NCBI GenBank assembly: GCA_045641645.1
Contig: JAZUHK010000047.1
Coordinates: forward strand, 51,316 to 115,315
Origin: Kiritimatiellia bacterium
GTDB lineage: Bacteria; Verrucomicrobiota; Kiritimatiellia; RFP12; UBA1067
Direction: 5' to 3'
Length of the DNA: 64,000 nucleotides
A program made the translations under genes and the position numbers. Of this stretch, positions 20,232 to 47,011 are shown piece by piece. How positions within the stretch are numbered: the stretch's first letter is position 1; each line of letters starts with the position of its first letter. The notes under the pieces were generated by a model, which was not told where the DNA came from, searched no databases, and was given only the letters and a program-made list of their open reading frames with translations.

Positions 20232-20310
20232 ATCGAAAAATTCCCCTCTTGCTTCTTGCTCAAACTTTTTTCGATTTTTCGTTTGTGAGCGGAGGGCGGG
20301 TGAGTCGCGA

Positions 20311-20400
20311 GGAGAAGAAGGTGGAGAAAGTCGGTGGAGGTGGACAGTGGTGGGGAGAAGAAGGTGGAGAAAGTAGGTGGAGGTGGAGAATGGTGGGGTT
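20311..20400. repeat. 45-bp tandem repeat x2 (gagaagaaggtggagaaagt[c/a]ggtggaggtgga[c/g]a[g/a]tggtgggg[a/t]) in a convergent intergenic region
   Basis: Seen directly; two units differ at 5 positions. Confidence 0.7.
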
Positions 20401-21535: not shown

Positions 21536-21650
21536 GGCGGGAATTATAGCATATTATCGCGGCTGTTTGCGCAAAAGTGATAATATTTTTTGCGCCAAAA
21601 TGATATCAGGTTTGTAATATAATATCCGCTGAATGGAAGCTGGAGGTTCT

Positions 21651-28994: not shown

Positions 28995-29189
28995 ATGATC
29001 CGCCGCGCCATCCGTCTGGAGGGATTGGATGCGGAGCGGCGTTATCGGCTGAAGGAGATTAACCGCGGTGATCGCCTGCACGGGGATTTCGACGGCAAGG
29101 AGTTGACCGGCCGGGAGCTGATGGAGAACGGAGTTGTGGTGGAGATTGGCAATCTTTACGATTCAATGGCGATCGAACTTGCTCAATGA
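28995..29189 (+). other. Short ORF resembling the C-terminal beta-sandwich tail of a glycosidase; possible gene remnant
   Basis: 64 aa (…GDFDGKELTGRELMENGVVVEIGNLYDSMAIELAQ) with no upstream catalytic domain. Confidence 0.25.
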
Positions 29190-30341
29190 TGACGAGAAGA
29201 CGCGGGCGGGGGAACTTCTGATTTTATATTCCGACATGGTCACGCCGTAACGCGATTTGAAGCTGCGCATCAGCTGGGTGGAGGATCTCCAGCCGCAGAG
29301 ATTGGCGATGGCACCGAGCTTCATGTTCGGGCGGGAGAGAAGTTCCTGCACTTTTTCGAAGCGGGCGTCGAGAATGGCCGCGCCGATGCTTTTCCCAGTC
29401 ACCTCCAGAAACAGCTTTTCCGCAGTGCGTCGCGCTTTGCCCATCGCTTCCGCCACTTCGCTGATGCGGAGGCGGGTATCGGCGCGTTCGCGGATGAGCG
29501 TGAGCGCGCGGTTGACCGCCGCCGCGCCCAGCAAGGTCAGCGACGAATTGCGTCGCACGAGTGTCCGTGGCGGAATGTACGTGTGCCGCCGGCCGGCCGG
29601 CCGGTGTTCCATCAGCAGGGCGAGCGTCTGCGCGGCGGCCTCGCCGGCTTGTTCCATGTCCTGCTCGATGCTGGTGAGGGTGGGGTTCAGGTTCTCGCAA
29701 ATGGTCAGGTTGTTATCTACCGATACCACCTTGAGCTCGTGCGGAATCCTGAGGCCGCATTTTCTGGCGGCGGCATAAAGGGCGCTCGCCGCGAGATCGT
29801 TGACGGCAAAGGCGGCGATCGGAGGGTCGAGGCGGCGCAGGGCGGCGGCGATCTGGTCGCCGGACAGGATCGGATTGCCGTCGGTGGTTTCGATGAAACT
29901 TAAGGCGACCTGTCCGTGCTCGCATGATTTCGCGAAGGATGCGCGGCGCGCCTTGGACCAGGGGAGGTCGGATTGGACTGAAACGAAGATCGCCTGTGAG
30001 CCAGCGGCGGGGGCGAGTTCGTCGAAAGCCCGCTGAGCGATGACGGCGGCGTCACTTTCGACGGTATGGTATCGGCCCGGATGCGGGATGTTGGCATCGA
30101 GGAAGACGCGCGGCACTTTGGTGCCGGGGAGTTTTTCGAGAGCTTCGTTCGCGTGGTCGCCTTCGATGATGATGCCGTCGGGTTTGAGGGAGCGGCAGAG
30201 TTTGCGGACTTCGGCGGCAGGCGCCTCGGGTTCCAGGTAAAAGAGCTGCCACGCGGCGGCTTTGGCGACCCTGAACATGCCGATGAGTTTGTCGGCCTTG
30301 CGCATCTGGTTGGCATTGGTGAAGACGAGTACCTTTTTCAT
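29163..30341 (-). CDS. XylR-type hybrid regulator (PBP-like sensor + AraC HTH), paralog of 20399-21535
   Basis: MKKVLVFTNANQMRK… sugar-binding-fold N-terminus and a C-terminal …LGAIANLCGWRSSTQLMRSFKSRYGVTMSEY AraC HTH. Confidence 0.7.
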   Translation of the reverse strand: MKKVLVFTNANQMRKADKLIGMFRVAKAAAWQLFYLEPEAPAAEVRKLCRSLKPDGIIIEGDHANEALEKLPGTKVPRVFLDANIPHPGRYHTVESDAAVIAQRAFDELAPAAGSQAIFVSVQSDLPWSKARRASFAKSCEHGQVALSFIETTDGNPILSGDQIAAALRRLDPPIAAFAVNDLAASALYAAARKCGLRIPHELKVVSVDNNLTICENLNPTLTSIEQDMEQAGEAAAQTLALLMEHRPAGRRHTYIPPRTLVRRNSSLTLLGAAAVNRALTLIRERADTRLRISEVAEAMGKARRTAEKLFLEVTGKSIGAAILDARFEKVQELLSRPNMKLGAIANLCGWRSSTQLMRSFKSRYGVTMSEYKIRSSPARVFSSSLSKFDRH

Positions 30342-30436
30342 GCTGGAGGAGATTATAGCACATCATTTGCATAAAAGGATAGTAAAATAATTGCGTAATA
30401 CGCAATCTATTGACGCGGCAGAGATGGTAAAATGTC
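30312..30436. repeat. 125-bp block (regulator 5' end plus intergenic promoter/operator region); copy 1 of 2, second copy at 37517-37641
   Basis: About 96% identical to 37517-37641. Contains the perfect palindrome TTGCGTAATACGCAA (30391-30405) and TTGCATAAAAGG. Confidence 0.85.
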
Positions 30437-30472
30437 ATCACAATCAAAAGGATAAGAGAAAGGAAAGGGCAA

Positions 30473-33400
30473 ATGAAAGCTTATTCTCGCTTTTTGGGGG
30501 CTTGGATGTCCTGTGTCGGATTGGCGATAGCCGCACAGTCGCTCGCCGCTACGGGCTTACCCGAGGGCTATATCGAGCTTAGCTATATCAAATCGACGAG
30601 CACATCGTCGAATAGCGAAATCGCCCAGCAGTATCTCGATACGGGTTATACGCCGCAGGATGCCAAGTTGGGATTCGAGCTCGACTTCGTTTTTCATGGC
30701 GGCGTAAAGAAAAGCCCCGGGAACCGCATTATGGGTTCGAGCACCAAGAGCGGCAATTATGGTCTTTTCATCGGGGCTTATAGTGATCCAGCCCCTAGCG
30801 GTGGGGTTGGCGGGCAGTTTTACTTTTGTAATTCGCCCGTTAAGAACCCGTATATTAAGGGAGGTGTTCGTCAGTTGCTCGTCCTGCGAAATAAGCAGTA
30901 CTGGAGTTATGAAATTTCCGAGGACATTTTGAGTACGAATGAATTGGGCAAAATCGATTCCTTACCGGTACAGACGAGTAATTTGGGCTATGATGGATCG
31001 ATTTTGTTGGGATCGATTAAATGTGGAACCGAGAGAGCGGAACTTCGCGCCGTCTGCACTTTTTACCGCTTCAAGATTTACGATGGGGATACGCTCCTGC
31101 ACGATTTCGTGCCGGCGCTAAGTCCAGATGGTGTCGCTGGGCTTTATGATATTGTCGGCGAGCTTGGATTTAAGACGAGCAATGATCCAACTAATTATCC
31201 TTTTACCCCTGGCGACCCGGTTGATCTCGACGGTGGCACCGTGACGATCAATCCCGTACTCGTCGAGGCCACGATCACCGTGGCCGGAAGCGCGAAGGCA
31301 AGCGGGAGTTTCATCGAGGCGGGGTCGGAGGTGACGGTTACGGCGCATCCCCTCTTGGGCGGGGAGCGGGTGATCTCGTGGGAGAAGCCGCTACCTGCGG
31401 GGGCCGTCACTTCGATGTCGGGCGAGGATGCGGTATTGACTTTTACGATGGGCTTAGAGCCGGTCATAATCGGCGTAAGGTCGGTGGCGAATGTCAATAC
31501 GACCTTGCCGTCTGGGTATCGGTTACTTGAATATATCGAATCGACGGGAACGCAGTATGTGGATACGGGGGTTAAAATTGGAAGTGATGTCGCGATGGAA
31601 TTGGAGCTGGCGCTAACGCCGAATGAGACCGTCAACGATCAGTGCAACTACTCGGGCGCGGCGCTCAATCAATCGCAGGGATGGCTTTTGGTGGGCGATT
31701 ACGGCAAAGCCGAGAACAAGTTAGGCGCTTACTTCGCCAGGGGTACACGGGCTGGCGCGGAAATCGTCTATGATTCCGCTTTCCACTACTACTATTGCGG
31801 TGACGGCTTTCAGTGCGTGGATACGACTACGGCGAATAATTCGGCGACTTTTTCCAGTGAGCTCACGCTGTACCTTTTAGATGCCAATATCGAGTGGTCG
31901 CCGACGCATAGGCGCCGGCAGCGGCTTAAGTCGTGCATCATTTACGAGGATGGGGCGGTCGTGCGCAATTTCGTGCCGGCGCTGGAACTGGCTACCGAGA
32001 CCCCGGGGCTTTATGATGTGGAAAACGGAGCGTTTTACGGGAACGCCAATTCCAGTTCGTCGGATAAGTTTGCGTACAAGGAAGTGGAGGCACTCACGGT
32101 CGTCGGCAATCCGGTCGAGGTCGGCTCGCCGGTTCCCGATTATGGACTGGATCTGGCGGCGCGGCTGGACGAGGAGCGCACCTATACCTTTCCTAACGCG
32201 GGCTTCCCGTTTACCAATGCCGAGGAGACGGTCGTCTGTACGGGACTCAGCGGCTATACGCTCACTTTGAAAAACGGCGTCTCGTATTCGGGCGAAGGCA
32301 ATTCCACCTCTTTCGTTTATACGACGGAGCATTATGGGGCGACACTCGCGTGGAATTTCACCACCATCAGCCGCCTCACGTTTGCCGCGGCGGACGAGTT
32401 CGGTGCCGTCATTGGGGCAGAAGCGGGCTTTTATGCGCCTGGTACGGAGCTTACGCTGCGGGCGAAGCCCGTGCGGGAGGCGGTGTTCGCGGGATGGACG
32501 GGGGATGTCGATCCGGAGCACGCATTCGATAATCCGCTCACCGTCACGATGGGTTCGTCGCCGCTCAACCTCGTGGCGAATTTCCGTTCGAACACCCAGC
32601 CCACGGCGGAGGAGTGCTCGACGAAGGATCTCGTCGTTTCGATTATCGGCGACAGCTACAGTTCGTTTAGCGGCTATAATAACTTAGGCACGCCGTATTA
32701 TCCCGCTCGCGATGTCACTTCGGTCGAGCAGATGTGGTGGCGTAAGGTAATCAAAAACCTCGGGGCGAAGCTGGGGGTCTGCGATGCCTCTGGCGGGACA
32801 ACGCTCGGTTATAAGACGAAGAGTTCCTCGTTCCTTTCGCGAGTGCGGAAACTGGACGATGGCGCGAACGGTACGCCCGATATCATCTTCGTCTTCGGTG
32901 GGGCGAATGATCAGGCGCAGGGCGCGGGGCAGGGCGATTACCTTTACGATCCCACAACTTGGAATAATACGACGCTCGCCAGTTTCCGTCCCGCCTGCGC
33001 GGCGATGATCAATCACCTCCGTAATCTCTATCCCAAGGCGCGGATTTATTTTGTCGTCAATGCACCGGCGACTTCGGATACCGATATCTACCTTCAGCCC
33101 GCATATATCGATTCGATGACCAACGTCTGTGCGCATTGCGGAGTGCCGTATATCGAGCTTCACGATATTGATCGCGTAGAACGTCATCCGACGGCGGCTG
33201 GGATGGCGGCCATCGCCGAGCAGGTGACGGCGTTCGTCCAGGCGGATTTCGCCGCGCGCGCGACCTACGGTTATCAGGATAAGCTGTTTTATTCGAATGA
33301 CTCCTCTTTAAGCTGCCAAAAGGTGGGTAAGGAGTATGTCTATATTGCCACCAATACGGATCGCCGCATTACGCTCGTGGCGCGGCGCAATCTGGAGGTT

Positions 33401-34186
33401 AGGCGCTCGCTGGTGGTGGGCGGTGGCGGCGCGGGAGGCGCGACCATTGGCGGCGGCGGCGGTGGCGGCGGCGTGACGGAGGCAACGTATGCCGAGGGAG
33501 GTTTCCTGGTGAAGAAGGGCGAGCGGCTGACGCTGGTCGTGGGCGCGGGCGGCGGATATGACGCGGTGGTGCCGGCGGAGGCCTCGGGTTCGCCGATCAC
33601 GGTCGGTCATTGGCAAAGGGGCGTTAGCGGTACGGCGTCTCGGGTTTTGACTAATGGTGTTGAGCTCGCGTGCGCTGGCGGCGGTGGTGGTGGCGGCGGC
33701 TGGGAGAGTGTTGCTGGCGGTGCGGCGCAAGATGGCGCGAGTACTGGCGGCGGCGGTCGCGGCGGTGCAGCGGGAGCGGTTACCGGGGTTGGTCACGCGG
33801 GCGCGAATGGACCGAGTAACGGCAATGGCGGCGGTGGCGGCGCCGGGCTTGCGGGTGCGGCTTCAGGTGGCGGCGTGGGCGGCGCAGGCGGCGCGGGAGT
33901 CGAATCGGATATTACCGGTTTTGCGCTTGATTACGGCGCGGGCGGTGGTGGCGGTGCAGGTAATGGTAGCGGCCAGCCGGCGCAACCGGGCGCGGCGGGT
34001 GACGAAAGCGCTGGTGCAGGCGGTGCGGTCGGTGCGGTCGGCGGCAAGGGTGCTGACGGCTTGGGTGGCGGCGGTGGCGGCGGTGGCTACAACGGCACGG
34101 GCTATGTCGGCGGCAAGGGCGGCAATGGTGCGGTTATTTTGCGGGTGCGCTCGAAGGTCGAGGGGACGATATTGTTCTTAAGGTGA
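30473..34186 (+). CDS. Very large secreted modular protein (1237 aa): repeated type-A and type-B modules of unknown function, GYxFxGW repeats, an SGNH/GDSL hydrolase domain, and a ~240-aa Gly-rich tail
   Basis: Signal peptide. Module motifs include QYLDTGYTP…RIMGSS…YRFKIYDGDTLLHDFVPA…GLYDIVGELGFKTS and YRLLEYIESTGTQYVDTGV…HYYYCGDGFQCVD…VVRNFVPA. SGNH blocks IIGDSYSSFSG, FVFGGANDQ, DIDRVERHPT. Tail GGGGAGGATIGGGGGGGGV…. Confidence 0.6.
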   Translation: MKAYSRFLGAWMSCVGLAIAAQSLAATGLPEGYIELSYIKSTSTSSNSEIAQQYLDTGYTPQDAKLGFELDFVFHGGVKKSPGNRIMGSSTKSGNYGLFIGAYSDPAPSGGVGGQFYFCNSPVKNPYIKGGVRQLLVLRNKQYWSYEISEDILSTNELGKIDSLPVQTSNLGYDGSILLGSIKCGTERAELRAVCTFYRFKIYDGDTLLHDFVPALSPDGVAGLYDIVGELGFKTSNDPTNYPFTPGDPVDLDGGTVTINPVLVEATITVAGSAKASGSFIEAGSEVTVTAHPLLGGERVISWEKPLPAGAVTSMSGEDAVLTFTMGLEPVIIGVRSVANVNTTLPSGYRLLEYIESTGTQYVDTGVKIGSDVAMELELALTPNETVNDQCNYSGAALNQSQGWLLVGDYGKAENKLGAYFARGTRAGAEIVYDSAFHYYYCGDGFQCVDTTTANNSATFSSELTLYLLDANIEWSPTHRRRQRLKSCIIYEDGAVVRNFVPALELATETPGLYDVENGAFYGNANSSSSDKFAYKEVEALTVVGNPVEVGSPVPDYGLDLAARLDEERTYTFPNAGFPFTNAEETVVCTGLSGYTLTLKNGVSYSGEGNSTSFVYTTEHYGATLAWNFTTISRLTFAAADEFGAVIGAEAGFYAPGTELTLRAKPVREAVFAGWTGDVDPEHAFDNPLTVTMGSSPLNLVANFRSNTQPTAEECSTKDLVVSIIGDSYSSFSGYNNLGTPYYPARDVTSVEQMWWRKVIKNLGAKLGVCDASGGTTLGYKTKSSSFLSRVRKLDDGANGTPDIIFVFGGANDQAQGAGQGDYLYDPTTWNNTTLASFRPACAAMINHLRNLYPKARIYFVVNAPATSDTDIYLQPAYIDSMTNVCAHCGVPYIELHDIDRVERHPTAAGMAAIAEQVTAFVQADFAARATYGYQDKLFYSNDSSLSCQKVGKEYVYIATNTDRRITLVARRNLEVRRSLVVGGGGAGGATIGGGGGGGGVTEATYAEGGFLVKKGERLTLVVGAGGGYDAVVPAEASGSPITVGHWQRGVSGTASRVLTNGVELACAGGGGGGGGWESVAGGAAQDGASTGGGGRGGAAGAVTGVGHAGANGPSNGNGGGGGAGLAGAASGGGVGGAGGAGVESDITGFALDYGAGGGGGAGNGSGQPAQPGAAGDESAGAGGAVGAVGGKGADGLGGGGGGGGYNGTGYVGGKGGNGAVILRVRSKVEGTILFLR

Positions 34187-34190
34187 GGTG

Positions 34191-37100
34191 ATGGTTGATG
34201 GTCGGTGTTTGGGGGCGCTTTTGGGCGGCGTTGCCTTGGCGGTGCTGTCGGCCGTCGGCGGCGGGCTGCCGGATGGCTATGTTGAACTCACCTGCATCAC
34301 CTCTGACGGCAATCAATACCTGGATACGGGCTATACGCCGACATCGGTCGACTTTGGCTTTGAGCTGGAGTTCACCTTCAAGGGAACGGTCGGAACGGGT
34401 GGCACGCGCATTATCGGCTCCTCGACGCGGAAGGGGACGAACCCAGGCGTTTTTGTCGGCAGCTACCAAGGTGCTGCGGCTTCGTCGGGCGGTCAGATGT
34501 GGTTTTGCGGCGCCTGCGGAACCGGCAATCCGGGGATTGTCCCCAACCGCTGGATGTCGATCTCGCTCAAGCGCCGGCGCTACACGGCCAGCTCGGCCAG
34601 CACGTCTACGACCGTTGACTTGAGCGGGGCTTCAGATACGAGCGGGCTTGCCGGTTCCGTTTGGCTTGCGTCGGTTCACCAAAGTTCAGACAATAGGGCG
34701 CATTCCCCCGGCGACTGGTATCGGCTGAAGCTTTACGAGGGCGATGCGCTGGTGCATGACTTTGTGCCGGCGAAGGATTCCTCGGGGCAGGTAGGCCTCT
34801 ATGACGTGGCTGGCAATCTGGGCTTTAGGACGAGCGCGGTTTCCGGCAAGCCCTTTATCGCCGGGGCCGAAGTGGAGAGCGGCTCTGAAGATTCGTCTGC
34901 GCGGGTCGTTAAGGTTGACAACGAGTGGTATTATGAAGGTTCGATTGCGGGCGATCCGTCGGGTGACTACCTGCCAGACACCAATCTGACCTTTACGGCG
35001 GTGGCGAACGAGGGCTATCGCTTTGCCGGTTGGTCGGGCGATGTCGGCGCGGCTGAAATCGACGGGAACACGGCCGTGGTCAGGGTGACCGGCGAGTCGC
35101 CGCGGGGCATCGCGCTTTGGGCGAACTTTGAGAAGCTTCCCTGTCCGCATGTCTTCTCAATGTCGATCAAGGCGACGAGTTTTGCCGCGGGCGGCGACCT
35201 GGTGAATGAGGGTCGCCGGGATGAACTGATCGGCTGGCTTTTGGCGAACGGCTTCACGAAGGTCTACCTTGAGACCTACCGGCACAATGTCTATGCGCCC
35301 ACCGAGCTTTTGGCGACGGCGAGCAACGAGTTTGCGGCGGCGGGACTTGATGTGTGCGGGCTCATCACCCCGACTTGCCTTGACCTGGATCCCTCGGCGA
35401 CGCCGGTGAGCGGCAGCTATGAAACGTGCTTCAGCAATCCGTTCGCCCGCGAGCGGCTCTCGAATGAAGTGGCGCGGTGTGCGCGGCTTTTCAACACCAT
35501 CCTCTTTGACGACTTCCTCTTCGCCTCGTGTCAGCAGAGCTGCCCTCATTGCCGCAGCACATCGGTCGAGTTCCGCACGGAGCTCGTCAATGCCGTCTGC
35601 CGGGAGATCTTGGCGACGGCGAGGGAGGTGAACCCCCGCTGCCACTGCATCATCAAGTATGCCAACTGGTATGACCTCTGGACCGGCAGGGGACTGAACC
35701 CCGCCTTGCAGACCGCCATCTTCGGCGAGTGCTGGGTGGGGAGCGAGACGCGCGACGCAGGCAGCGATCCGCTCTGGGCCTGCAATGCCTATGACTATCT
35801 CAATTCGCGCTGCGGCGGGCGTTGCGGCGGCGTGTGGTTCGACCCGCTTGATTCGACGCCCGCCAAGTATGTGGAGCAGGCCTACTACTCGATTCTTTCG
35901 GGTGCGCCGGAGTCGCTGTTCCATTGCTTTGACTACATGCTGGCCGACAACGGCGGCACGACGCCCTATGGCGAGAGCTTTAAGGACGCCTATAAGTGTA
36001 CGGATCTCCTGGAGGAGCGCATGGAGGAGCTGCATGCGCTCGCCGATTTTTGCGATGCGGCCGAACGCGGTGAGGTGAAGAAGCTTTCAAACGGCATCTC
36101 GCAGCATTACTACACGCTGGACGGCGCCACTTATGTCGCCCGGGTCAACACAAGCAAGATGCAGGCGGGCGACGAGTTCGGGGTCTTGGCGCCGAACCAG
36201 TTCGGCTTCCCCTTGCTGGTGGCGGAGGCGACGGACGAGGATTGTCCTGACGAAGCGGAATATTTTGAGGATGGGCGGTATATGCGCGTACAGCATGTCT
36301 ATTCGGAAGATGGCGGCAATGGCTTTACCGCGAGCACCGAAAATTACATTGATACGGGCTACACCCCCGCTTCCACGAGCGTGGGCTTCTACTTTGACTT
36401 TGTCTTTGACGGCACAATTGGGACGGATGCGCCGCGAATCATGGGATCTTCAATCAGGGATAAGAACAACAACTGGGGCGGTCTTGAATTGGGCGCTTAT
36501 AATTCAACTGGCGGCGGCGAGTTCTTTGCCTTCGGCCACGGGCCCCAAGAGCTGGTCAATCCGCGCCTGCGGTCGGGCTGCCGCATGACGCTGGATTTCC
36601 GCAACGGCATTTTGCTCGCGGCGGATGGCGGCAGGGTGGACCTTTCGGCGCATCATGTCGATACGGATTTCAACGGGAACATTTGGATCGGCTGCGTTCA
36701 TTCGCCTGACTATGGCACGAAGAAGGGTTGTGCGCCTTTGAAGGTCTACCGTTACAAAATTTACGAGGGCGACGAGGTCGTCCATGATTTTGTGCCGGTG
36801 AAACGGGTGGAGGACGGAGCCGCCGGGCTTTACGACCTGGTGGGCGGGAAGGGCTTCCGGGTGGGAACGGGGTTTAAGGCCGGCACTTGGACGCCCCGGT
36901 CGAGCCGGGGCGCTTTCAGGCAGCTTCAGTATATCGAGTCGGACGGGCTGCAGTATTTTGACTTGGGCGTTCCGACGGCGACTAATGTGGCCTTCGAAGC
37001 CGAGATGGCGTCGGTTTACGAGGAGTCGACGGAGAACAACTACATCGGCGCGGTCTATGGCAGCAGTTCGGGCTGGATGGCGATTGGCGACTATGGAGAA

Positions 37101-37517
37101 GGGAAGCTCGTCTCCTATTATGCGACCAAGAGCCGGCAGGGAACTGGCGTCGAGATCCCCTATGATACGCTCTTCCACCATTACTATTGCGGGAACGGCT
37201 TGCAGGTGATTGACGGCGTGACCAATCACACGGTCTCGGCCAAGATGCCGGACAACGTCGCCACGGTCAACCTGTGGGCGTTTAAGGCGAATCTCACCTT
37301 CAGCGGCAGTTCCATGGCGAAGCTGAAGATCAAGTACCTGAATGTCTATCTGAACGGGGTCTTGGTTCGCCAGCTCGTGCCCGTCAACGCCGGCGGGCGG
37401 ATTGGCATGCTCGACAAGCTTAGCGGCCAGTTCTACCTGAACGAGGGCGCGGGGAGCTTTGCCGCCGGCCCTCCCTGCGCGAAACGGGGCTTGATCATCC
37501 GCTACCTTGGCCGTTAG
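34191..37517 (+). CDS. Very large secreted modular protein (1109 aa), paralogous modules to 30473-34186 plus a Cys-rich central domain
   Basis: YVELTCITSDGNQYLDTGYTP…YRLKLYEGDALVHDFVPA…GLYDVAGNLGFRTS, GYRFAGWSGD, a central …VYLETYRHNVYAPTELL…CPHCRS… domain, then a second A module (YRYKIYEGDEVVHDFVPV) and a B module (LQYIESDGLQYFDLGV…HHYYCGNGLQVIDG). Its start overlaps the upstream stop. Confidence 0.6.
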   Translation: MVDGRCLGALLGGVALAVLSAVGGGLPDGYVELTCITSDGNQYLDTGYTPTSVDFGFELEFTFKGTVGTGGTRIIGSSTRKGTNPGVFVGSYQGAAASSGGQMWFCGACGTGNPGIVPNRWMSISLKRRRYTASSASTSTTVDLSGASDTSGLAGSVWLASVHQSSDNRAHSPGDWYRLKLYEGDALVHDFVPAKDSSGQVGLYDVAGNLGFRTSAVSGKPFIAGAEVESGSEDSSARVVKVDNEWYYEGSIAGDPSGDYLPDTNLTFTAVANEGYRFAGWSGDVGAAEIDGNTAVVRVTGESPRGIALWANFEKLPCPHVFSMSIKATSFAAGGDLVNEGRRDELIGWLLANGFTKVYLETYRHNVYAPTELLATASNEFAAAGLDVCGLITPTCLDLDPSATPVSGSYETCFSNPFARERLSNEVARCARLFNTILFDDFLFASCQQSCPHCRSTSVEFRTELVNAVCREILATAREVNPRCHCIIKYANWYDLWTGRGLNPALQTAIFGECWVGSETRDAGSDPLWACNAYDYLNSRCGGRCGGVWFDPLDSTPAKYVEQAYYSILSGAPESLFHCFDYMLADNGGTTPYGESFKDAYKCTDLLEERMEELHALADFCDAAERGEVKKLSNGISQHYYTLDGATYVARVNTSKMQAGDEFGVLAPNQFGFPLLVAEATDEDCPDEAEYFEDGRYMRVQHVYSEDGGNGFTASTENYIDTGYTPASTSVGFYFDFVFDGTIGTDAPRIMGSSIRDKNNNWGGLELGAYNSTGGGEFFAFGHGPQELVNPRLRSGCRMTLDFRNGILLAADGGRVDLSAHHVDTDFNGNIWIGCVHSPDYGTKKGCAPLKVYRYKIYEGDEVVHDFVPVKRVEDGAAGLYDLVGGKGFRVGTGFKAGTWTPRSSRGAFRQLQYIESDGLQYFDLGVPTATNVAFEAEMASVYEESTENNYIGAVYGSSSGWMAIGDYGEGKLVSYYATKSRQGTGVEIPYDTLFHHYYCGNGLQVIDGVTNHTVSAKMPDNVATVNLWAFKANLTFSGSSMAKLKIKYLNVYLNGVLVRQLVPVNAGGRIGMLDKLSGQFYLNEGAGSFAAGPPCAKRGLIIRYLGR

Positions 37518-37641
37518 CATTGGTGAAGACGAGTACCTTTTTCATGCTGGAGAAGATTATAGCACACCATTTGCATAAAAGGATAGTAAAATAATTGCGT
37601 AATACGCAATCTATTGACGCGGCAGAGATGGTAGAATATGT
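37517..37641. repeat. Second copy of the 125-bp promoter/operator block, including the palindrome TTGCGTAATACGCAA at 37595-37609
   Basis: Begins exactly at the stop codon of the upstream gene and ends at the start of the downstream gene. Confidence 0.85.
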
Positions 37642-38840
37642 TGACACCTAAAATGGGATGGAGTATGATTCTACTGATAGCTACGATTTTTTCGATGTCC
37701 TTCAAGGTGACCGCGCTCAACGGCGAGTTGACGCGCCCGGGAGTGAAGGAGCGGGCGGCGGCTTGGCTCAAGACGCATCACATCACCAAGGTCTATTTGG
37801 AGACCTACCGTCACGCCGAGTATGTGCCGACTGAGCGGCTGGTCGCCTATCGGGACTGGTTTCGGACGAATGGCTTCGAGGTGGCGGGACTGTTGACCCC
37901 GACGATGCTCAACGATCCGGAAAAGCCAGGGGAAAAGCCGCCTTACTGTTGCTGTTGGAGTGATCCTAAATGCCGCGAGCGATTAGCGGCAGAGTCCGTG
38001 CGCGCGGCGGGCGTTTTCGATACGGTGCTGTTGGATGATTTTCTCTTCGATTGCTGCACCTGTCCGCGTTGCACGCGGCTTAAGGAGGAGAGCGGCAAGT
38101 CGCTGGACGATTTTCGCTTCGACCACATGGAGGATCTTTGCCGTAAGGCGATCTATGAGCCCGCGAAGGCGGCGCATCCGAAGAGCCGCTTCATCATCAA
38201 GTTCCAGTGCTGGTATAAGGGGTGGTCCACGTCGGGGACGGATCCGAAGCGGCTCACTAATGTCTTCGGCGCGTGTTGGATCGGCACCGAGTCGCGTGAC
38301 AATTGTGACGATCCGATGCAATCGGCGTGGATTACGCCGTATGTGGACGATTTGACGGGCGGCCGTTGCGAGGGCTGCTGGTTTGATCCGCTCGACTCGA
38401 CGCCCGAGCGTTATGTGCAGCAGGCGCGCTATACGATTCTCGGCGGTACGCGGGAAACGCTTTTCCACGCTTATGACTATCTGCTCGCCGAAGACCCCGG
38501 CGGCGTGCCGTTCGGGCAGAGCCCGAAAGGCGGTCACGCATGCCGCGCGGCGCTGGAAGCGGAGATTGACGGGCTCTGGCGTCTCGCGGAGATAGTGGGA
38601 CCGCTCAGGCCCGTTGAGCAGAAGTTGGAGCCAAATGGCGTCTCGCGGCATCTTTTCCGCGAGGGCCAAACGCTCTATACGGCTTATCAGAATACAACCA
38701 ATGAAGCGCGAGCGGTGGTTATGCCGGCGAGAGCAAAGGTGAGCTTGATTCTACCCGACGATTCCGGCTACGAGCCGTCCACGGTGGTGCTTAAGCCGCA
38801 TGCTTTCGTGCTGTTTGCGCATCCGGTGGTGCAGAAGTAA
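37638..38840 (+). CDS. Standalone paralog of the Cys-rich central domain of 34191-37517 (unknown function; possibly a TIM-barrel glycosidase-like fold)
   Basis: …ITKVYLETYRHAEYVPTERL…CCCWSDPKCRERL…LLDDFLFDCCTCPRCT…CWIGTESRD…GRCEGCWFDPLDSTPERYVQQARYTILGG… aligns with residues ~330-640 of the upstream protein. Confidence 0.55.
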   Translation: MLTPKMGWSMILLIATIFSMSFKVTALNGELTRPGVKERAAAWLKTHHITKVYLETYRHAEYVPTERLVAYRDWFRTNGFEVAGLLTPTMLNDPEKPGEKPPYCCCWSDPKCRERLAAESVRAAGVFDTVLLDDFLFDCCTCPRCTRLKEESGKSLDDFRFDHMEDLCRKAIYEPAKAAHPKSRFIIKFQCWYKGWSTSGTDPKRLTNVFGACWIGTESRDNCDDPMQSAWITPYVDDLTGGRCEGCWFDPLDSTPERYVQQARYTILGGTRETLFHAYDYLLAEDPGGVPFGQSPKGGHACRAALEAEIDGLWRLAEIVGPLRPVEQKLEPNGVSRHLFREGQTLYTAYQNTTNEARAVVMPARAKVSLILPDDSGYEPSTVVLKPHAFVLFAHPVVQK

Positions 38841-38967
38841 TCGGCTTTATTACGCGGCGTTGAAAGAGCGTTTCTGACACGGTTGCGCGGTGAAAGCCGA
38901 ATAGCCGACGTTGCCGTCAATTTCGCCGACGTGCCGGACTGGGCGGCGACAGGGTTCGCGAATAATG

Positions 38968-38976
38968 TGCTATAAT
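38968..38976 (+). promoter_or_regulatory. Extended -10 TGcTATAAT upstream of the GH92 gene
   Basis: aatgtgctataatatttggc. Confidence 0.35.
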
Positions 38977-39070
38977 ATTTGGCATGAGAGCATTGCGTAA
39001 CTTCATGTCCAATCGCGGTTATCAGCTGATCAGCAGGGTTGTACGCCGTGCGTTCTTGCTTGACCCTCGA

Positions 39071-41320
39071 ATGCTGATAACTTTCATGGCCGCGGCCTTG
39101 GCCGCGGGAGTGTCCGCGGCGGAAGCGCCGCAGGAAACGCCGCTCGCGGCGCCGGATCTGTTCATCGGCACGCAGGGGCTCGGGCATGTTTCGCCGGCGG
39201 CGGCGTGGCCGTTCGGCATGGTGCAGGCGGGGCCCGATACGTCGAAGACGCCGGAGCGCTATTTCGGCGATTGGCCGCATACCTGCGGCTACCAGCATAA
39301 TGACCGGTTCCTCTGGCGTTTCTCGCAATGCCGGTTCTACGGCATCGGATGCGGCTCGATGGGATTCTTCGGGCTGTTGCCGTCCGCGAGTCCCTTTGAT
39401 GCGGCGAATCACGCCTATGCGAAGGAGATGGACAAGGCGACCGAGAAGGCCATTCCCGGATACTACACGGTGACGCTGAAGGAGGGGAAGGTGCGTTGCG
39501 AGATGACGGCGCTCGCCCGTTCGGCGGCGTATCGTTTCGACTTCGCTCGCGGCGGCCGCGCCTATCTTCTGGTCGATCCGGGATGGGGCTGTCAGCTGGA
39601 CGAGCCGAAGCGCAGGGTGGATATGGCCGGTATCGACGCGTGCTTCGGCCGTTACGTGCTCGACTCAGAAGCGCGCGTTCAGACGCCGACGCGCCTTGCC
39701 TTGCACACGCGGCAGATGGATTGGAATGACGTTGAATGCTGGGGCGTCGCCGAGCTCTCTTCGCCGATCGTCTCGTCCCGGAAACTTCGCGCGGCGAAGT
39801 TTCCGCATGGCGAGATCGTCGAATACGGCTTCGACCTGCCGACGAACGGCGTTTTGGAGGTGCGACTCGCCTTGTCCCGCACGTCGATTCGGGCGGCGGC
39901 GAAGAATCTGGCATCGGAGATGCCGGACTTCGATTTCGACGGGGCGAGGGCGAAGGTCGCCGCCGAATGGAAACGGCGGCTATCGGCGCTTAGGCTCGAT
40001 CCGGCGACGCCAGAGCCGGTGAAGACGATCTTCGAGTCGGCTTTTTACCGCACGATGATCCATCCGAGCGATCTTGGTGATGTTGGCGGTAAGCGCGCTT
40101 ATTCCAATCTCTCGCTCTGGGACATCTTCCGCTCCTGTTCGCCGCTGCAGACGATCTTCGCGCCGGAGGTGACAGGCGGACTTGTCGAGTCGATGTGCGA
40201 TATCTTCGACCGTCAGGGGTATCTTCCGATTCTGCATACGTGGGGCGTCGATAACCACTGCATGATCGGGCATCACGCGGTGCCGATCATCGTGGACGCC
40301 TATCTTAAGGGCATCGGCGGCTTTGACGCCGAACGCGCTTACGAGGCGGTGAAGGATTCGCTGACCGTGATGCATGTGAAAGCCGGTAACGGCACTTGGG
40401 GGCTTTTGAAGGAGGATTGGGATGTCTATGACGCCTACGGCTACTATCCGTTTGACAAGTTGACCGGCGAATATCACGGGCAGGTGGTGAAGGGCGAATC
40501 CGTCTCCCGTACGCTCGAGTGCGCCTACAATGACGCCTGCGCGGCGAAATTCGCCGCGGCGCTCGGCAAGCGGGAGGACGCGGCGTTTTTCGCGAAGCGC
40601 GCGCAGAGCTGGAAGAACGTCTTCGATGCGTCCGTCGGCTTCATGCGCGGCAAGGATTCGAAAGGCCGCTGGCGCGAGCCGTTCGACCCGAAGTCGTGCG
40701 GCGCGGGGCCGTGGGCGGAGAACGACTTCACCGAAGGTAACTCCTGGCAATATACGTGGCATGTGATGCACGATATCCCGGGGCTTGTCGCGGCGATGGG
40801 CGGCAAGGAGAAGTTCGGCGCGAAGCTGCAGGCGCTCTTTGAGCAGACGGACGAGGTTTACGGCAGTTCGTTCACGCACGATGTCTCGGGGCTGATCGGG
40901 CAGTATGCGCACGGCAACGAGCCGAGCCATCATGTCGCGTATCTCTTTCGCTGGTCGGACCGTCCGGAGAAGACCGATGAATACGTCGGCCGCATCTGCC
41001 GCGAGCTTTACGGGCCTAAGCCGGACGGCTGTTGCGGCAATGACGATTCGGGGGCGATGGCGGCGTGGTATGTCTTTTCGGCGCTCGGGTTCTATCCGGT
41101 GGATGCCTGTGGCGGGGAATACGTCATCGGCGCGCCGCAGGTGCCGGGTGCGACCTTGCGGTTGCCGAACGGCAAGGTGTTCAGGATGGAAGCGAAGGGA
41201 TTCGGTGGGGAGAAGAGGTATGTGAAGTCGGTGACTTGGAATGGGCGCAAGATTGTGAATTGGCGTTTTCGGCATGAGGAACTGTTGGCGGGGGGAGTGC
41301 TTGGTTTTGAGTTGGAGTAA
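39071..41320 (+). CDS. GH92 family alpha-mannosidase (secreted)
   Basis: Signal peptide MLITFMAAALAAGVSAAEA. GH92-like blocks …YSNLSLWDIFRS…, …HAVPIIVDAYLKGIGGFD…, …GNEPSHHVAYLF…CGNDDSGAMAAWYVFSALGFYPV…. The ORF track offers an earlier ATG at 38984. Confidence 0.65.
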   Translation: MLITFMAAALAAGVSAAEAPQETPLAAPDLFIGTQGLGHVSPAAAWPFGMVQAGPDTSKTPERYFGDWPHTCGYQHNDRFLWRFSQCRFYGIGCGSMGFFGLLPSASPFDAANHAYAKEMDKATEKAIPGYYTVTLKEGKVRCEMTALARSAAYRFDFARGGRAYLLVDPGWGCQLDEPKRRVDMAGIDACFGRYVLDSEARVQTPTRLALHTRQMDWNDVECWGVAELSSPIVSSRKLRAAKFPHGEIVEYGFDLPTNGVLEVRLALSRTSIRAAAKNLASEMPDFDFDGARAKVAAEWKRRLSALRLDPATPEPVKTIFESAFYRTMIHPSDLGDVGGKRAYSNLSLWDIFRSCSPLQTIFAPEVTGGLVESMCDIFDRQGYLPILHTWGVDNHCMIGHHAVPIIVDAYLKGIGGFDAERAYEAVKDSLTVMHVKAGNGTWGLLKEDWDVYDAYGYYPFDKLTGEYHGQVVKGESVSRTLECAYNDACAAKFAAALGKREDAAFFAKRAQSWKNVFDASVGFMRGKDSKGRWREPFDPKSCGAGPWAENDFTEGNSWQYTWHVMHDIPGLVAAMGGKEKFGAKLQALFEQTDEVYGSSFTHDVSGLIGQYAHGNEPSHHVAYLFRWSDRPEKTDEYVGRICRELYGPKPDGCCGNDDSGAMAAWYVFSALGFYPVDACGGEYVIGAPQVPGATLRLPNGKVFRMEAKGFGGEKRYVKSVTWNGRKIVNWRFRHEELLAGGVLGFELE

Positions 41321-41347
41321 GAGTTGGAGTTGGAGAGTGGCGGAAAG
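41309..41347. repeat. Second copy of the GGAG-rich spacer (gagttggagtaagagttggagttggagagtggcggaaag)
   Basis: Matches 4236-4273; here it overlaps the GH92 stop codon. Confidence 0.7.
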
Positions 41348-41421
41348 ATTCTGAGTGAAGGAGATTTTGACCACGTCGGTCGTGGTCTGTCCTATGGCCG
41401 CCGCAGCCGCGGATCCGCGGA

Positions 41422-43203
41422 TCAGTCGTCGAGCGCGCGGAGATCGAGCTTAAGGACCTTCGCCGCCGAGCCCTGGCGCTGGCCCGGCTCTTGCTTGGCT
41501 CCACTGACGTATTCGCGCCCCATTACCGCATTGGTGGGAAGCCCCACGTCGCTCGGCAGATCGGCGGGATTCGCGATGCCGATCGTCACGCACACGATGA
41601 TCTCCTTCTGCACCTTCTGGCGGCTCTTCCAGCCGAAGAGCTTCGGACCGATCCACGGGATCTTGCGGAGATAGGGGATGCCGGAATCGACATCGTCCTC
41701 CACGGTGCGCGAGAGTCCGCCGATGACCGCCGTTGAGCCGTCCTTCATCGTGAACTCGGTGGTGATGCGCTTCATTGCGATTACCGGGAAGAGCCCGTAG
41801 GAACTGTCGCTCTGGATGTTGTAGAAGCCGGTGGCGGTGGTCTCGGTATCGAGTTGCGAAATGGTGGGGATGATCTCGACGGAAATGAGACCGTCGGGCG
41901 AGATGCGCGGCTTGACGCTCAGCTCGATGCCCCACTGGTAGAAGCAGGAGCCGGAGAAGAGCGCCTTGTCGCGGTAGTCGAGCTCTTTGTGCCCGCGCTC
42001 GCCGGGGATCTCCTGGATCTCGGCGGCAGTGTCGAGATAGGCGCCGTAGCTGGTGTCGTTGCGCTGCGAGGTGAGTTTCACGTTCGGAAACTTGGTGGTC
42101 ATATCGACGACGGCCTCCTTGCCGTTGGAGACGATGACCTTCGGGTTGGAGAAGATCCTGCCTTCGCCGAACTCCTCGAAGGCCGAGAGTGCGAGGCGGA
42201 AGTCGTCGGCGGAGAGCTGGCCGGAAAAGCCGGAGGCGTTGCGCCAACCCATCGATTCCGCCGAAAGCCCGGCGCCCGTCGCTTCCTTGATGGCGTCCGG
42301 GCGCAGAAAATTCGCAGTGGTATAGTCGCGTACGGACTTGCCGTCGGAGATGTCGTTGCCTTCGGCATTGAACTGCTTGGGCTGGTAGAAGTGGTCGGAC
42401 TTGCCGTTCGAATAGTGAGCGGCCTTGCCGCTGTTGAATTCGATGCCGCCGGAGATGTTCTTGGCCGTCATCCCCCAGCTTTCGAGCTGGTTCCACTGGA
42501 TGCCCAGCTTGTGCATCGCCTCGCTCGAAAGTTCGAGGAAACGCGCCTCGATGTAGATCTGGGCGACGGCCTTGTCCACGGCCTTGACGATCGATTCGCA
42601 GTCGGCGATGGTCTTTTCGGTGGCGGTGACGACCACCACGTTGGCGCCCGCGAAGCAGGTGGCGACGGGAATGGTGATTTCGCCCTTGTCGTCCTTCTGG
42701 CCGTAGGACTGGTTGAAGAGCACGGTCAGCTCGGAGGCGGAGGCGTGATTGAGCGTGAAGGTCTTGGTGAGGATGGGATCCGCGACCTTGTCTTCCTTGA
42801 CGAAGTAGATTTCGCCGCGTTTCTCCAGCCGATAGTTGCGCGAATTGAGGATCGACTGAAGGGCGTCGAACCAGGGGACACGGTGAAGGTTCACCGAGAC
42901 GCGCCGCAGGAGGTTGGTGGAATCGTCGGAGATGATGTTCGCATCCGTCACCTTGCGGAACTGCCGCAGGACATCGGCCAGCGTGGTGTCGTCGCAGGCG
43001 ATATCGACGAGCGTCGTCGCCGCCGGCGAGTCGAGCCGCGAGATCCGCGCCTGATGCGCGGCATCGGCGGAATCGTCGATTTCCCCGAGATCGATCACGT
43101 CGGCCTTCATCTCTACGGCGGCGGCCGGGGTGACGGCGCTTTCTTCGGCGAAGGCGCCGAAGCAGGCGAGCAGCAAGGCAAAGAGGACGTGTTTCTGGTT
43201 CAT
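41422..43203 (-). CDS. Secretin (GspD/PilQ family outer-membrane channel)
   Basis: Signal peptide, N-domains, and a C-terminal secretin block …VIGGLSRTVEDDVDSGIPYLRKIPWIGPKLFGWKSRQKVQKEIIVCVT…. Confidence 0.8.
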   Translation of the reverse strand: MNQKHVLFALLLACFGAFAEESAVTPAAAVEMKADVIDLGEIDDSADAAHQARISRLDSPAATTLVDIACDDTTLADVLRQFRKVTDANIISDDSTNLLRRVSVNLHRVPWFDALQSILNSRNYRLEKRGEIYFVKEDKVADPILTKTFTLNHASASELTVLFNQSYGQKDDKGEITIPVATCFAGANVVVVTATEKTIADCESIVKAVDKAVAQIYIEARFLELSSEAMHKLGIQWNQLESWGMTAKNISGGIEFNSGKAAHYSNGKSDHFYQPKQFNAEGNDISDGKSVRDYTTANFLRPDAIKEATGAGLSAESMGWRNASGFSGQLSADDFRLALSAFEEFGEGRIFSNPKVIVSNGKEAVVDMTTKFPNVKLTSQRNDTSYGAYLDTAAEIQEIPGERGHKELDYRDKALFSGSCFYQWGIELSVKPRISPDGLISVEIIPTISQLDTETTATGFYNIQSDSSYGLFPVIAMKRITTEFTMKDGSTAVIGGLSRTVEDDVDSGIPYLRKIPWIGPKLFGWKSRQKVQKEIIVCVTIGIANPADLPSDVGLPTNAVMGREYVSGAKQEPGQRQGSAAKVLKLDLRALDD

Positions 43204-43703
43204 TGGCCGGATCCTTTCTCTTCCGGGGAGGTTGGGATTTCGCGCAATTTGACGCGCAGAAGCTTCAGGGTGTTGGTTGCCGCCGACATCTGGAGGCGCC
43301 AGGTGAAGCGGTAGCCATTGTGGTTGACGGAAATGAGGTCGCCGTCGGCATAGACCTTGCCGTTGACGGTGACGGCCGAACGGCCGGCGTCGGCGTCGGT
43401 TCTCAGGGTGCTGCCGAATCTGAGCGTCTTGCGCGCCCGCGTCCAGAGGCGGTCGATGCCGGGGCCGTCTGCCATGTTGACGGGCTCGAATTCGGCAGCG
43501 GCCGTGGCGGTGACATTGGTGGCGGCGGTTTTCGTGTCGGGCGCTGCCGCCGGAGCCGCAATCCGGACCTGCGGGTCCTCGACGATCGCTTCGCGTTCGC
43601 CGACGTAGCCCTCCGGCCAGAAGGGATTGCGCAGCGGCGTGGCGGCGGCGAGGAGCGCGGCGAGGAGCATGGTCATCGGACGGCTCCTTTCTTCATGGGC
43701 CAT
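43200..43703 (-). CDS. PilP-like pilus assembly protein (hypothetical)
   Basis: Small protein with signal/lipoprotein-like N-terminus and a beta-rich C-terminus, encoded between the PilO-like gene and the secretin (pilMNOPQ order). Confidence 0.4.
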   Translation of the reverse strand: MAHEERSRPMTMLLAALLAAATPLRNPFWPEGYVGEREAIVEDPQVRIAAPAAAPDTKTAATNVTATAAAEFEPVNMADGPGIDRLWTRARKTLRFGSTLRTDADAGRSAVTVNGKVYADGDLISVNHNGYRFTWRLQMSAATNTLKLLRVKLREIPTSPEEKGSGQ

Positions 43704-44260
43704 TCGAAAACGAAGGTGATCTGCTGCAGTTCGGGATCGGCCGTCGCCGTGACCGAGAGCGCGGTGAGGGATACGAGCTCGAAGCGCTTTTCCACGCAGC
43801 GAACGAGGGATACGGCCGCTTGGTAACTGCCGCGGCAGGTGATCCGGATCGGTTCGCGCACGAATTGCTCCTGCGCGGCGAGACCGAAGACGGGCAGTGC
43901 GACGGGTTCTTGGGCCTCGTACTCGAGATTGATGAGCCCGCAGCCGGTGGCAAGCGGATCGATCAGCGCCTTTGCGCGCATGGCCGTCGATTCGAGGAGG
44001 GGCGTCATCAGCCCCGCATCGTAGGTAGCGCGGCGGACGGATTTCTCGTTCAGCCCGCGGAGGATGATCTCCTTTTGCGCGAGATCGTCAAGGACGGTGC
44101 GCTGGCGGACGATCTGCTCTTCCAGGACGGCGTGGGCCGCCGTCAGGTTGAGATCGGCAGGTTCGATGACGCCGAAGTAGAACGCCGCGCCGACGACGCC
44201 GAAGGCGAGCGTGAGCAGGAGGGATTGCCGGGTGTCTGGCGGCCTTAGCTGGAGTTTCAC
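43673..44260 (-). CDS. PilO-like inner-membrane pilus assembly protein
   Basis: GTG start 8 nt after an AGGAGG RBS, single N-terminal TM (LLLTLAFGVVGAAFYFGVI) then a coiled coil. The longer ORF start at 44791 lacks an RBS and overlaps the PilN-like gene. Confidence 0.5.
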   Translation of the reverse strand: MKLQLRPPDTRQSLLLTLAFGVVGAAFYFGVIEPADLNLTAAHAVLEEQIVRQRTVLDDLAQKEIILRGLNEKSVRRATYDAGLMTPLLESTAMRAKALIDPLATGCGLINLEYEAQEPVALPVFGLAAQEQFVREPIRITCRGSYQAAVSLVRCVEKRFELVSLTALSVTATADPELQQITFVFEWPMKKGAVR

Positions 44261-44913
44261 GGCGTGAACCTCCTCTCCTGGACGAGATATTCGATATCGA
44301 AGACGAGTTTCCGCTGTTCTTCGCCTTTCTTCGGCAGGTCCTGCTTGAACGCCTTGACCCGCGGACTGACGATCCCTTCTTCGGGATGCTGACAGACCTC
44401 CAGCAGGTTGGTGAAGGGCTCGGCCGTGAGCGAACGCATCAGCATAAGCACCGGCTGTTCCTGCGGGGTGCGCCCGACGAGCGAGAAGGTAGTGCGTTCG
44501 ACATATCCCGTCGATGGCTCGGCAATCTCCGGCAAGGCCGGCGGCGGCATCGAGAGGGTGACGAGCTGGACTTGCGGCGGCATCACTTCGGCGAGCGCGC
44601 CGAGCGCCGAACCGACGCGGCGAACCGATTTGCGGTAGCAGTCGAGCTGCTCCAGCTGGGCATCGAGCTCGTTGGCTTCCGCCATCAGCTCGATGATCTC
44701 CTGGTGGGGATTGGTCTGTTGGACGAGCTCTTGGTCGATCCGTCCGCTCATGGACTTGGTGAGCATCAGCTGCCCGACGAGGATCGCCCACCAGATGACC
44801 AGCCCCACGCAGGCGAAAAGCGCGAAGATTGGAGCCATCACGCGGAAGCGGACGGGCGAGGAGCTCACGCGCTCCGAAGGACGGAGGAGATTGAGATGAA
44901 GCGGCGTCTTCAT
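44257..44913 (-). CDS. PilN-like protein
   Basis: N-terminal LNLLRP-type motif, one TM (MAPIFALFACVGLVIWWAILV), and a coiled coil. Confidence 0.5.
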   Translation of the reverse strand: MKTPLHLNLLRPSERVSSSPVRFRVMAPIFALFACVGLVIWWAILVGQLMLTKSMSGRIDQELVQQTNPHQEIIELMAEANELDAQLEQLDCYRKSVRRVGSALGALAEVMPPQVQLVTLSMPPPALPEIAEPSTGYVERTTFSLVGRTPQEQPVLMLMRSLTAEPFTNLLEVCQHPEEGIVSPRVKAFKQDLPKKGEEQRKLVFDIEYLVQERRFTP

Positions 44914-45965: not shown

Positions 45966-46003
45966 CAGCGGAAAATATTATACCAAAAATTCGGGCACAA
46001 AAT

Positions 46004-46012
46004 ATGGTATAA
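46004..46012 (+). promoter_or_regulatory. Extended -10 TGGTATAAT upstream of the response-regulator gene
   Basis: aaatatggtataatgttcg, ~12 nt before the ATG. Confidence 0.4.
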
Positions 46013-46023
46013 TGTTCGCCGAC

Positions 46024-46989: not shown

Positions 46990-47011
46990 CCCGCTTTGCT
47001 TAAAGGGATAA

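Follow-up and report, generated by a model that had tools for sequence, protein, structure and literature searches.

In a 64,000-nucleotide stretch of the genome of an uncultured Kiritimatiellia bacterium (assembly GCA_045641645.1, contig JAZUHK010000047.1, positions 51,316 to 115,315; hereafter the window), we observed two near-identical copies of a promoter/operator block. Copy 1 (30309..30433) lies between the gene for a XylR-like regulator and a divergently oriented giant gene (giant gene 1), and copy 2 (37513..37637) lies between a second giant gene (giant gene 2) and a stand-alone gene for a GH_cat protein. Copy 2 forms the right end of a 3,460-bp segment that is absent from a close relative, and we lean toward the view that it is a functional internal promoter through which the regulator would control GH_cat.

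Genes flanking the two blocks

The regulator gene (29163..30341, minus strand) encodes a protein of 392 amino acids (aa) with a LacI/GalR-type sugar-binding domain and a C-terminal AraC-type helix-turn-helix (HTH) region. Pfam matches were Peripla_BP_3 (1.5e-25), HTH_18 (7.7e-13), and HTH_AraC (1.1e-9), together with Peripla_BP_4. This is the combination found in XylR, a periplasmic-binding-protein fold like that of LacI/GalR joined to a C-terminal AraC-type double HTH. In NCBIfam, no equivalog was matched at cut-off and no XylR model was among the matches; judged by its domains, the protein is XylR-like in architecture only. A scan of a genome collection with the regulator returned only an unrelated AraC-type match from Blautia.

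Giant gene 1 (30473..34186, plus strand) encodes 1237 aa with repeated N-terminal domains, a Flg_new_2 domain, a GDSL-like esterase domain, and a Gly-rich C-terminus. The region encoding the latter (33428-34088) consists of degenerate GGC-rich repeats (Gly-rich, GGxGG-type), and the orthologue on contig L004, from a more distant relative, carries the precomputed annotation PF21722 (Gly_rich_2), a Gly-rich C-terminal family. Giant gene 2 (34191..37517, plus strand; 1108 aa from the ATG at 34191) has N- and C-terminal domains in common with giant gene 1 (37-38% identity) and contains a central domain of a newer Pfam family, PF28584 "GH_cat".

The stand-alone GH_cat (PF28584) gene (37665..38840, plus strand; 391 aa) follows copy 2. 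Its longest open reading frame (ORF; 37638-38840, 400 aa) begins directly against the -10 hexamer of copy 2. The ATG at 37665 is the likely real start, because an identical 391-aa NCBI protein begins there and homologues begin nearby. A single contig in NCBI encodes proteins identical to the window regulator, giant gene 2, and this 391-aa GH_cat. Homologues of GH_cat at about 50% identity have names that point to metagenome-assembled genomes of Thermoguttaceae. The N-terminus of GH_cat (37638-37667; L005 3400-3420, on the contig of the close relative) aligns with a segment inside giant gene 2 (IFSMSFKVT against VFSMSIKAT, with about 10 residues before), and the orthologue on contig L006 has a longer, signal-peptide-like N-terminus; in this lineage, the signal peptide of the stand-alone GH_cat may therefore be minimal or truncated. 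On L006 the gene upstream of GH_cat is GH31-like, as read from its translation with no family search, and this contig is uninformative about giant gene 2.

The original prediction described the two blocks as preceding paralogous genes. This does not hold, given that giant gene 1 showed no relationship with the 400-aa GH_cat protein (E=1.9). The true paralogue of GH_cat is the central domain of giant gene 2 (residues 322-674; 39% identity to the 400-aa protein, E 3e-82), which lies upstream of copy 2.

The duplicated block

The two copies align without gaps at a constant offset of 7204 nt, with 121 of 125 positions identical. The core of the alignment (30313-30429 and 37517-37633) is 98.3% identical over 117 nt (115/117; E 8e-59), and the four differences between the copies are at 30312 (G/A), 30349 (G/A), 30363 (T/C), and 30430 (A/G). 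Identity between the copies drops abruptly to about 50% straight after the -10 hexamer, and only noise remains to the left of 30309, so that the window holds two copies with a similarity far above chance and with abrupt boundaries. Pairwise alignment thus bears out the earlier description of a near-identical block present twice (about 95% over 30312-30436); the position given there for copy 2 is off by 1 nt. Just 3' of the block a weak similarity (10/19 nt) remains. This was considered as a trace of a longer original duplication and was rejected, as it is not separable from chance in A-rich sequence. The intergenic block has a G+C content of 37%, compared with 62% for the window.

Copy 1 is the native divergent control region, includes codons 1 to 11 of the regulator gene, and is orthologous to the intergenic region of L004. 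Copy 2 retains the same cargo, as had been predicted: the regulator ATG and first 11 codons are present on the minus strand, where the frame reads MKKVLVFTNAN, then GQGSG and a stop, compared with MKKVLVFTNANQMRK in the intact regulator. This remnant of the regulator start (37495..37545, minus strand) is a 16-codon ORF (MKKVLVFTNANGQGSG, then stop) that runs antisense to the 3' end of giant gene 2. The TAG stop codon of the giant gene 2 reading frame (34188-37517) occupies 37515-37517 and falls among the first 5 nt of copy 2. Giant gene 2 has an intact C-terminus, which aligns up to the last residue of the homologues P0082 and P0083, and the block was therefore joined exactly at the native stop codon.

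Both copies contain a 15-mer, TTGCGTAATACGCAA (TTGCGTA-A-TACGCAA), with 7-nt arms and a central A. The claim of a perfect palindrome in each copy was thus confirmed, at 30391-30405 and 37595-37609. The 15-mer occurs in the window only at these two positions, where 0.11 chance matches would be expected at up to two mismatches, and no other similar site was found in the window at up to three mismatches apart from one coding-like match.

We considered whether the palindrome might act as an RNA hairpin, either as the intrinsic terminator of giant gene 2 or as another RNA element, instead of as a protein-binding site. A terminator scan did flag a minus-strand hairpin with an A/T-rich tail at both copies, but these hairpins are weak (-7.6 and -8.2 kcal/mol; z -0.56 and -1.6) and the plus strand lacks a U-run, so that the stable GC-rich hairpin with U-tract of an intrinsic terminator was not found. 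In addition, the block matches no Rfam family, no gene lies upstream of copy 1, on either strand, for a terminator to act on, and related loci keep this box at a fixed distance from the -10 motif together with a second box that in the window is not palindromic. An RNA role is therefore very improbable in our estimation.

A small mobile element, such as a miniature inverted-repeat transposable element (MITE), would also place near-identical sequences at two sites, and we give this idea, together with that of an assembly artefact considered below, the least credence of all. Terminal inverted repeats are absent, sensitive blastn detected no third copy in the 64-kb window, and a block-specific 33-mer gave no matches in the metagenome collection of the Joint Genome Institute (JGI). 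The terminal inverted repeats, target-site duplication, and many copies of a MITE or insertion sequence were thus not found; a short repeat, GATGG, flanks the whole indel described below and not the block.

A candidate two-box operator conserved among related loci

The palindrome had been proposed as a candidate operator for the adjacent regulator. To this site (box B; 30391..30405 in copy 1 and 37595..37609 in copy 2, plus strand, the same 15-mer) we add a second, box A, which is a degenerate direct repeat of box B and is located at 30367..30381 in copy 1 (TTGCATAAAAGGATA, plus strand) and, in identical form, at 37571..37585 in copy 2 (plus strand). The boxes, of the type TTGCG-N5-CGCAA, start 24 bp apart and together span 39 bp (30367-30405). 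With the -10 hexamer assumed to occupy -12 to -7, the centre of box B falls near -42 and that of box A near -66 relative to the plus-strand promoter; relative to the regulator promoter, box A has its centre near -29.

The divergent region of the window was compared with those of five other loci, L004 (regulator 66% identical) and L008, L009, L073, and L074 (35-40%). The layout is the same in all six: the -10 motif of the regulator, box A, 9-10 nt, box B, 21-22 nt, and TGnTAnAAT, with the flanking sequences diverged. The -10 motif of the regulator is kept about 10 nt before its ATG. Box B of L073 is the identical 15-mer TTGCGTAATACGCAA at the same position, and box A in L008, L073, and L074 is a good palindrome (TTGCGCAAT-A-yGCAA). 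Two repeats adjoining the -35 position of a weak promoter, as in XylR-type composite operators, are thus kept in six loci. This footprinting, with the same box at the same 21-22-nt spacing in five other loci, supports the assignment of the palindrome to the adjacent regulator, with the amendment that the palindrome is only the proximal half of the predicted site, box A 24 bp upstream having been overlooked.

A second XylR-like regulator in the window (20399-21535; 30% identical) is associated with a different repeat, TTGCGC-N-AAAA-TGAT, and the motif therefore tracks the regulator clade. Between the 3' end of the latter gene and a class II aldolase gene we also observed a purine-rich 43-nt direct repeat in tandem (20303-20388; two copies, 88% identical).

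A strict double-palindrome pattern retrieved 63 loci from the JGI metagenomes, and tblastn with 19 XylR-like proteins located such a regulator at none of them; the pattern picks up unrelated repeats and was rejected as a family marker. Two unrelated high-GC (68-69%) metagenome contigs, L011 (2480-2620) and L055 (5441-5480), each contain TTGCGTAATACGCAA twice, 25 bp apart, with a third near-copy on L011. No XylR-like gene was detected on either contig, and the box may thus serve another regulator family elsewhere.

Promoter motifs in the block

The window contains 15 matches to the extended -10 motif TGNTANAAT, compared with 1.7 in shuffled sequences (shuffle maximum, 6), an eight- to ninefold enrichment. 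By our reading of the coordinates, 13 of these 15 sites are located just upstream of gene starts, and the genes behind them include those for tRNA-Thr (9893), SecY, both XylR-like regulators, giant gene 1, GH_cat, and GH92. The sigma-70 type of extended -10 element, TGnTAnAAT, is thus enriched over chance and located upstream of genes, and both block promoters fit the promoter type of this organism.

Each copy of the block contains two such motifs back to back. The regulator motif in copy 1 (TGCTATAAT; 30352..30360, minus strand), found in the TGNTANAAT scan, ends about 10 nt before the regulator ATG, and transcription is predicted to start about 4 nt before the ATG, which would make the regulator mRNA near-leaderless. 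A motif of the same type precedes the second regulator (21543-21551) and the regulators of L004, L008, L009, L073, and L074. In copy 2 the corresponding motif (TGCTATAAT; 37556..37564, minus strand) is intact and faces giant gene 2 in the antisense direction.

On the plus strand, the promoter of the giant gene 1 operon has the motif TGGTAAAAT (30425..30433), located 22 nt after box B, as in L004, L008, L009, and L073, and no -35 hexamer was found at 17 nt. The copy 2 promoter has TGGTAGAAT (37629..37637, plus strand). The plus-strand variants in the two copies, TGgTAAAAT or TGgTAGAAT, are without a -35 element. The copy 2 motif ends 27 nt before the GH_cat start, and transcription is predicted to begin near 37644, which leaves about 21 nt to the GH_cat start codon. 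The four substitutions between the copies all fall outside box A, box B, and the conserved T/A/T positions of either -10 motif.

Independent assemblies and divergence among strains

Given that the window comes from a metagenome-assembled contig, and that short-read contigs from other samples break inside the block, we considered whether the repeat could have arisen during assembly. Contig L002 (SRR24915801), which covers the regulator side at 96% identity, ends at the equivalent of 30393, and L003 (SRR24915793) has the same end. Contig L007 (SRR24915801), which covers the 3' half of giant gene 1 and giant gene 2 at 98% protein identity, ends at the equivalent of 37597. The two end points lie exactly 30 nt after the final base by which the copies can be told apart (30363 and 37567), as expected for a graph break at k=31. 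L007 has the A and C of copy 2, and L002 the G and T of copy 1. These break points and copy-specific bases in an independent sample indicate that both copies are real and not an assembly artefact, with the left junction of each copy, including that of copy 2 in L007, recovered in independent assemblies. The order of the window is, moreover, the only linear path that uses every junction once. As stated above for a mobile element, an artefact is the least credible explanation of the repeat.

From L002, L003, and L007 it follows that the duplication is present in further strains and arose before these and the window strain diverged. The original prediction of a recent duplication therefore needs qualifying, in that the event is older than the separation of strains whose regulators differ by 3.9%. 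Divergence between the window and the SRR24915801 strain is uneven, amounting to 3.9% in the regulator, 1.0% in giant gene 2, and about 9% in the 3' half of giant gene 1, with the C-terminal tail of giant gene 1 and the intergenic spacer also different (window compared with L007 1-1956). This mosaic divergence suggests that the giant genes have recently been recombined or transferred, and from these patterns the locus is clearly to be read as a recombination hot spot. Copy 2 could have come from the resident copy, from the allele of a related strain, or from a full second regulator of which it is a remnant.

Between the strains, copy 1 alone shows no differences in 85 nt, compared with 3.9% in the regulator (P ~0.04). 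A Poisson test in which both copies were pooled against a divergence of 4% (P=0.009) was rejected, given that the neighbourhood of copy 2 diverges by just 1%.

Linkage of copy 2 to a 3,460-bp indel

Contig L005 (ENA ERZ27247137) lacks a segment of 3,460 bp (34201..37660) made up of giant gene 2 and copy 2, together with about 20 nt of unassigned DNA. In blastn, L005 1-3408 matched window 30796-34200 at 95.0%, and L005 3408-14587 continued unbroken on window 37661-48843 at 97.9%, with the stop codon of giant gene 1 located 11 nt from the GH_cat start in L005. In L004, the regulator, giant gene 1, and GH_cat are also contiguous, the latter two with a TAATG stop/start overlap; nucleotide identity to the window is 72% for the regulator, 91% for giant gene 1 (L004 1019-4110), and 65% for GH_cat. 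Copy 2 and giant gene 2 are thus missing at the orthologous position in both relatives. The original prediction of a simple segmental duplication that equipped a resident gene was not sustained, since copy 2 is the right end of an indel that includes giant gene 2.

The adjacency of giant gene 1 and GH_cat in both L004 and L005 means that giant gene 2 with copy 2 is most simply a derived insertion. On this parsimony argument, we infer that an insertion is the probable direction of the change, with a deletion in L005 well behind it. The GH_cat protein cluster comprises three 391-aa forms (MILL...) and three 393-aa forms (MNxILL...), which probably mark the haplotypes with and without the insertion, respectively.

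GATGG is present at both ends of the indel (34197-34201 and 37657-37661), and L005 has a single AATGA there. Such microhomology is in keeping with a second explanation of copy 2, that it is a functionless scar, left when illegitimate or microhomology-mediated recombination brought in giant gene 2 (or removed it from L005), and that it is tolerated while GH_cat is expressed mainly by read-through from copy 1. The strict linkage of copy 2 to the indel also fits a scar, as do the left end of copy 2, which cuts the regulator at an arbitrary point, codon 11, the lack of significant constraint on copy 2 between strains, and the highly mosaic nature of the region. A scar would not, however, be expected to have its start exactly on the native giant gene 2 stop codon and to end straight after an intact -10 motif, 27 nt before the GH_cat start. 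Copy 2 also holds every element conserved in the six loci, none of them mutated, and has persisted at least through the split of strains that differ by 3.9% in the regulator. We consider a scar unlikely, although it is the strongest competitor to a functional promoter.

The remnant origin mentioned above would require that a complete regulator-plus-promoter unit of about 1.3 kb or more was duplicated or imported and that its regulator was later deleted down to 11 codons. The orientation fits, in that one deletion from the giant gene 2 stop codon to regulator codon 11 yields the present structure. In L008 and L009, moreover, distant giant-2-like genes (51-55% identical) directly adjoin their own XylR-like regulator with a two-box promoter, and genes of the giant gene 2 kind therefore head such regulator units elsewhere. 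Against this, no haplotype with a full second regulator was found, and the deletion endpoint would have to hit the giant gene 2 stop codon exactly. The arrangement of a giant-2-like gene followed by a convergent regulator was not found in L008 or L009 either, where the downstream genes are a PurF-like gene and an unrelated ORF. A remnant is a less probable account than a scar, and it is an account of origin only, which leaves room for copy 2 to be functional or not.

Possible function of copy 2

Taken together, these observations make us somewhat favour, on sequence evidence, the reading of copy 2 as a functional internal promoter for GH_cat that depends on the regulator. As originally proposed, copy 2 is well placed to provide the downstream gene with a regulated promoter, with its -10 motif and both boxes intact. 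A ligand-bound dimer of the regulator would bind boxes A and B and recruit RNA polymerase, presumably by class II-type activation, and box A, overlying the -35 region of the regulator promoter, would allow autoregulation. Copy 1 is the native site before the giant gene 1 operon. Giant gene 2 would have been inserted into this operon in the present lineage, and the copied control region would have been acquired with it or soon after. GH_cat would thereby gain an internal promoter answering to the same regulator, which would offset the polarity or distance imposed by the 3.3-kb insert. Regulator binding, activation, and a selective benefit are all inferred here.

Several observations weigh against a functional copy 2. 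The parts of the block that would be useless for GH_cat, namely the regulator ATG, the 11 codons, and the antisense promoter, fit a by-product of recombination equally well. No purifying selection on copy 2 was detectable, with one difference in 85 nt compared with 1.0% in giant gene 2, and four substitutions would be expected by chance to spare the 30 nt of the boxes. No second assembly confirmed the right junction of copy 2, from the block to GH_cat, and the direction of the indel was assigned by parsimony, in a region that is visibly mosaic. In addition, the 63 double-palindrome loci without an XylR-like gene indicate that the motif alone is not diagnostic of this regulator family.

A broader scheme is, in our estimation, quite improbable. 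Here the splicing of genes into operons together with a copy of the promoter/operator would be a recurrent mechanism, an antisense transcript from the copied regulator promoter, with its 16-codon ORF, would tune giant gene 2, and a regulator dimer might link the two operators across 7.2 kb, in the way that E. coli XylR forms a DNA loop between IA and IF.

If copy 2 functions as an internal promoter, the locus would offer a clean natural example of how an operon absorbs a large gene without silencing the genes downstream, its own regulated promoter having been copied beyond the insert. The event can be seen as a polymorphism, present in some and absent from other close strains of an uncultured bacterium of gut or rumen type. 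The comparison of loci also yields a predicted operator model for a large and so far uncharacterised clade of XylR-like regulators located beside glycan-degrading genes: two boxes of the form TTGCG-N5-CGCAA, the second of which ends 22 nt before an extended -10 motif. This model could aid regulon prediction in these genomes.

Neighbouring genes and other promoter-like sequences

A GH92 gene (ATG 38984) follows GH_cat. It has its own extended -10 motif (TGCTATAAT; 38968..38976, plus strand), located 8 nt before the ATG, and therefore need not depend on copy 2. The window is chromosomal, with genes for SecY, RpoN, LepA, an aldolase, and type II secretion or pilus components. Three paralogues of a T2SSE-type secretion ATPase are encoded within 11 kb (47048-48715, 53405-55072, and 56202-57890), near genes for secretin, T2SSF, and prepilin-like proteins.

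The extended -10 motif marks the majority of gene starts, and its sites outside the block include those at 9870-9878, 13645-13653, 17255-17263, 21543-21551, 38968-38976, 45977-46013, and 63063-63071. Several are just 8-12 nt before an ATG, namely those of GH92, of the genes at 45965 and 46025, and of both regulators. Such short distances suggest that the organism commonly makes leaderless or near-leaderless mRNAs. The region 45977-46013 contains two TGGTATAAT promoters back to back, in an inverted-repeat arrangement (ATTATACCA...TGGTATAAT) between divergent genes.

Comparison with known systems

The locus does not represent a new kind of system, both an XylR-like two-box operator and cis-regulatory duplication being known kinds. 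The sites of E. coli XylR are about 37 bp in length and comprise two direct repeats next to a poor -35 element, with activation by recruitment (PMC3561964, Ni et al. 2013). Like E. coli XylR, which acts at IA and IF of the divergent xylAB/xylFGH genes (PMC3561964), the regulator described here combines a LacI/GalR-type sugar-binding domain with an AraC-type DNA-binding domain. Its predicted operator is likewise a composite of two repeats, about 37-39 bp in length, located by the -35 position of a promoter with a poor or absent -35 element in a divergent control region. The E. coli consensus, gaAa-a-a-AAT, was not found, however; the box here is TTGCG-N5-CGCAA, and, unlike those of E. coli, the boxes are themselves palindromic. 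The regulator gene is also divergent from its target, unlike that of E. coli, and is probably autoregulated through box A, and the predicted targets are genes for secreted multidomain esterases or glycosidases instead of those for xylose catabolism.

The block promoters resemble activator-dependent, class II (about -41.5), extended -10 sigma-70 promoters, with TGnTAnAAT, no -35 hexamer, and an activator box near -42. They differ in that the start sites are predicted and in that the host is uncultured and probably belongs to the Planctomycetes-Verrucomicrobia-Chlamydiae (PVC) group. As in other cases of regulon or operon rewiring by cis-regulatory duplication, a near-identical promoter/operator precedes a different gene inside an operon and is polymorphic among close strains. 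Unlike in those cases, the copy comes from the control region of the same operon, is coupled to the insertion of a 3.3-kb gene immediately upstream, and retains a truncated regulator start, with no transposable element.

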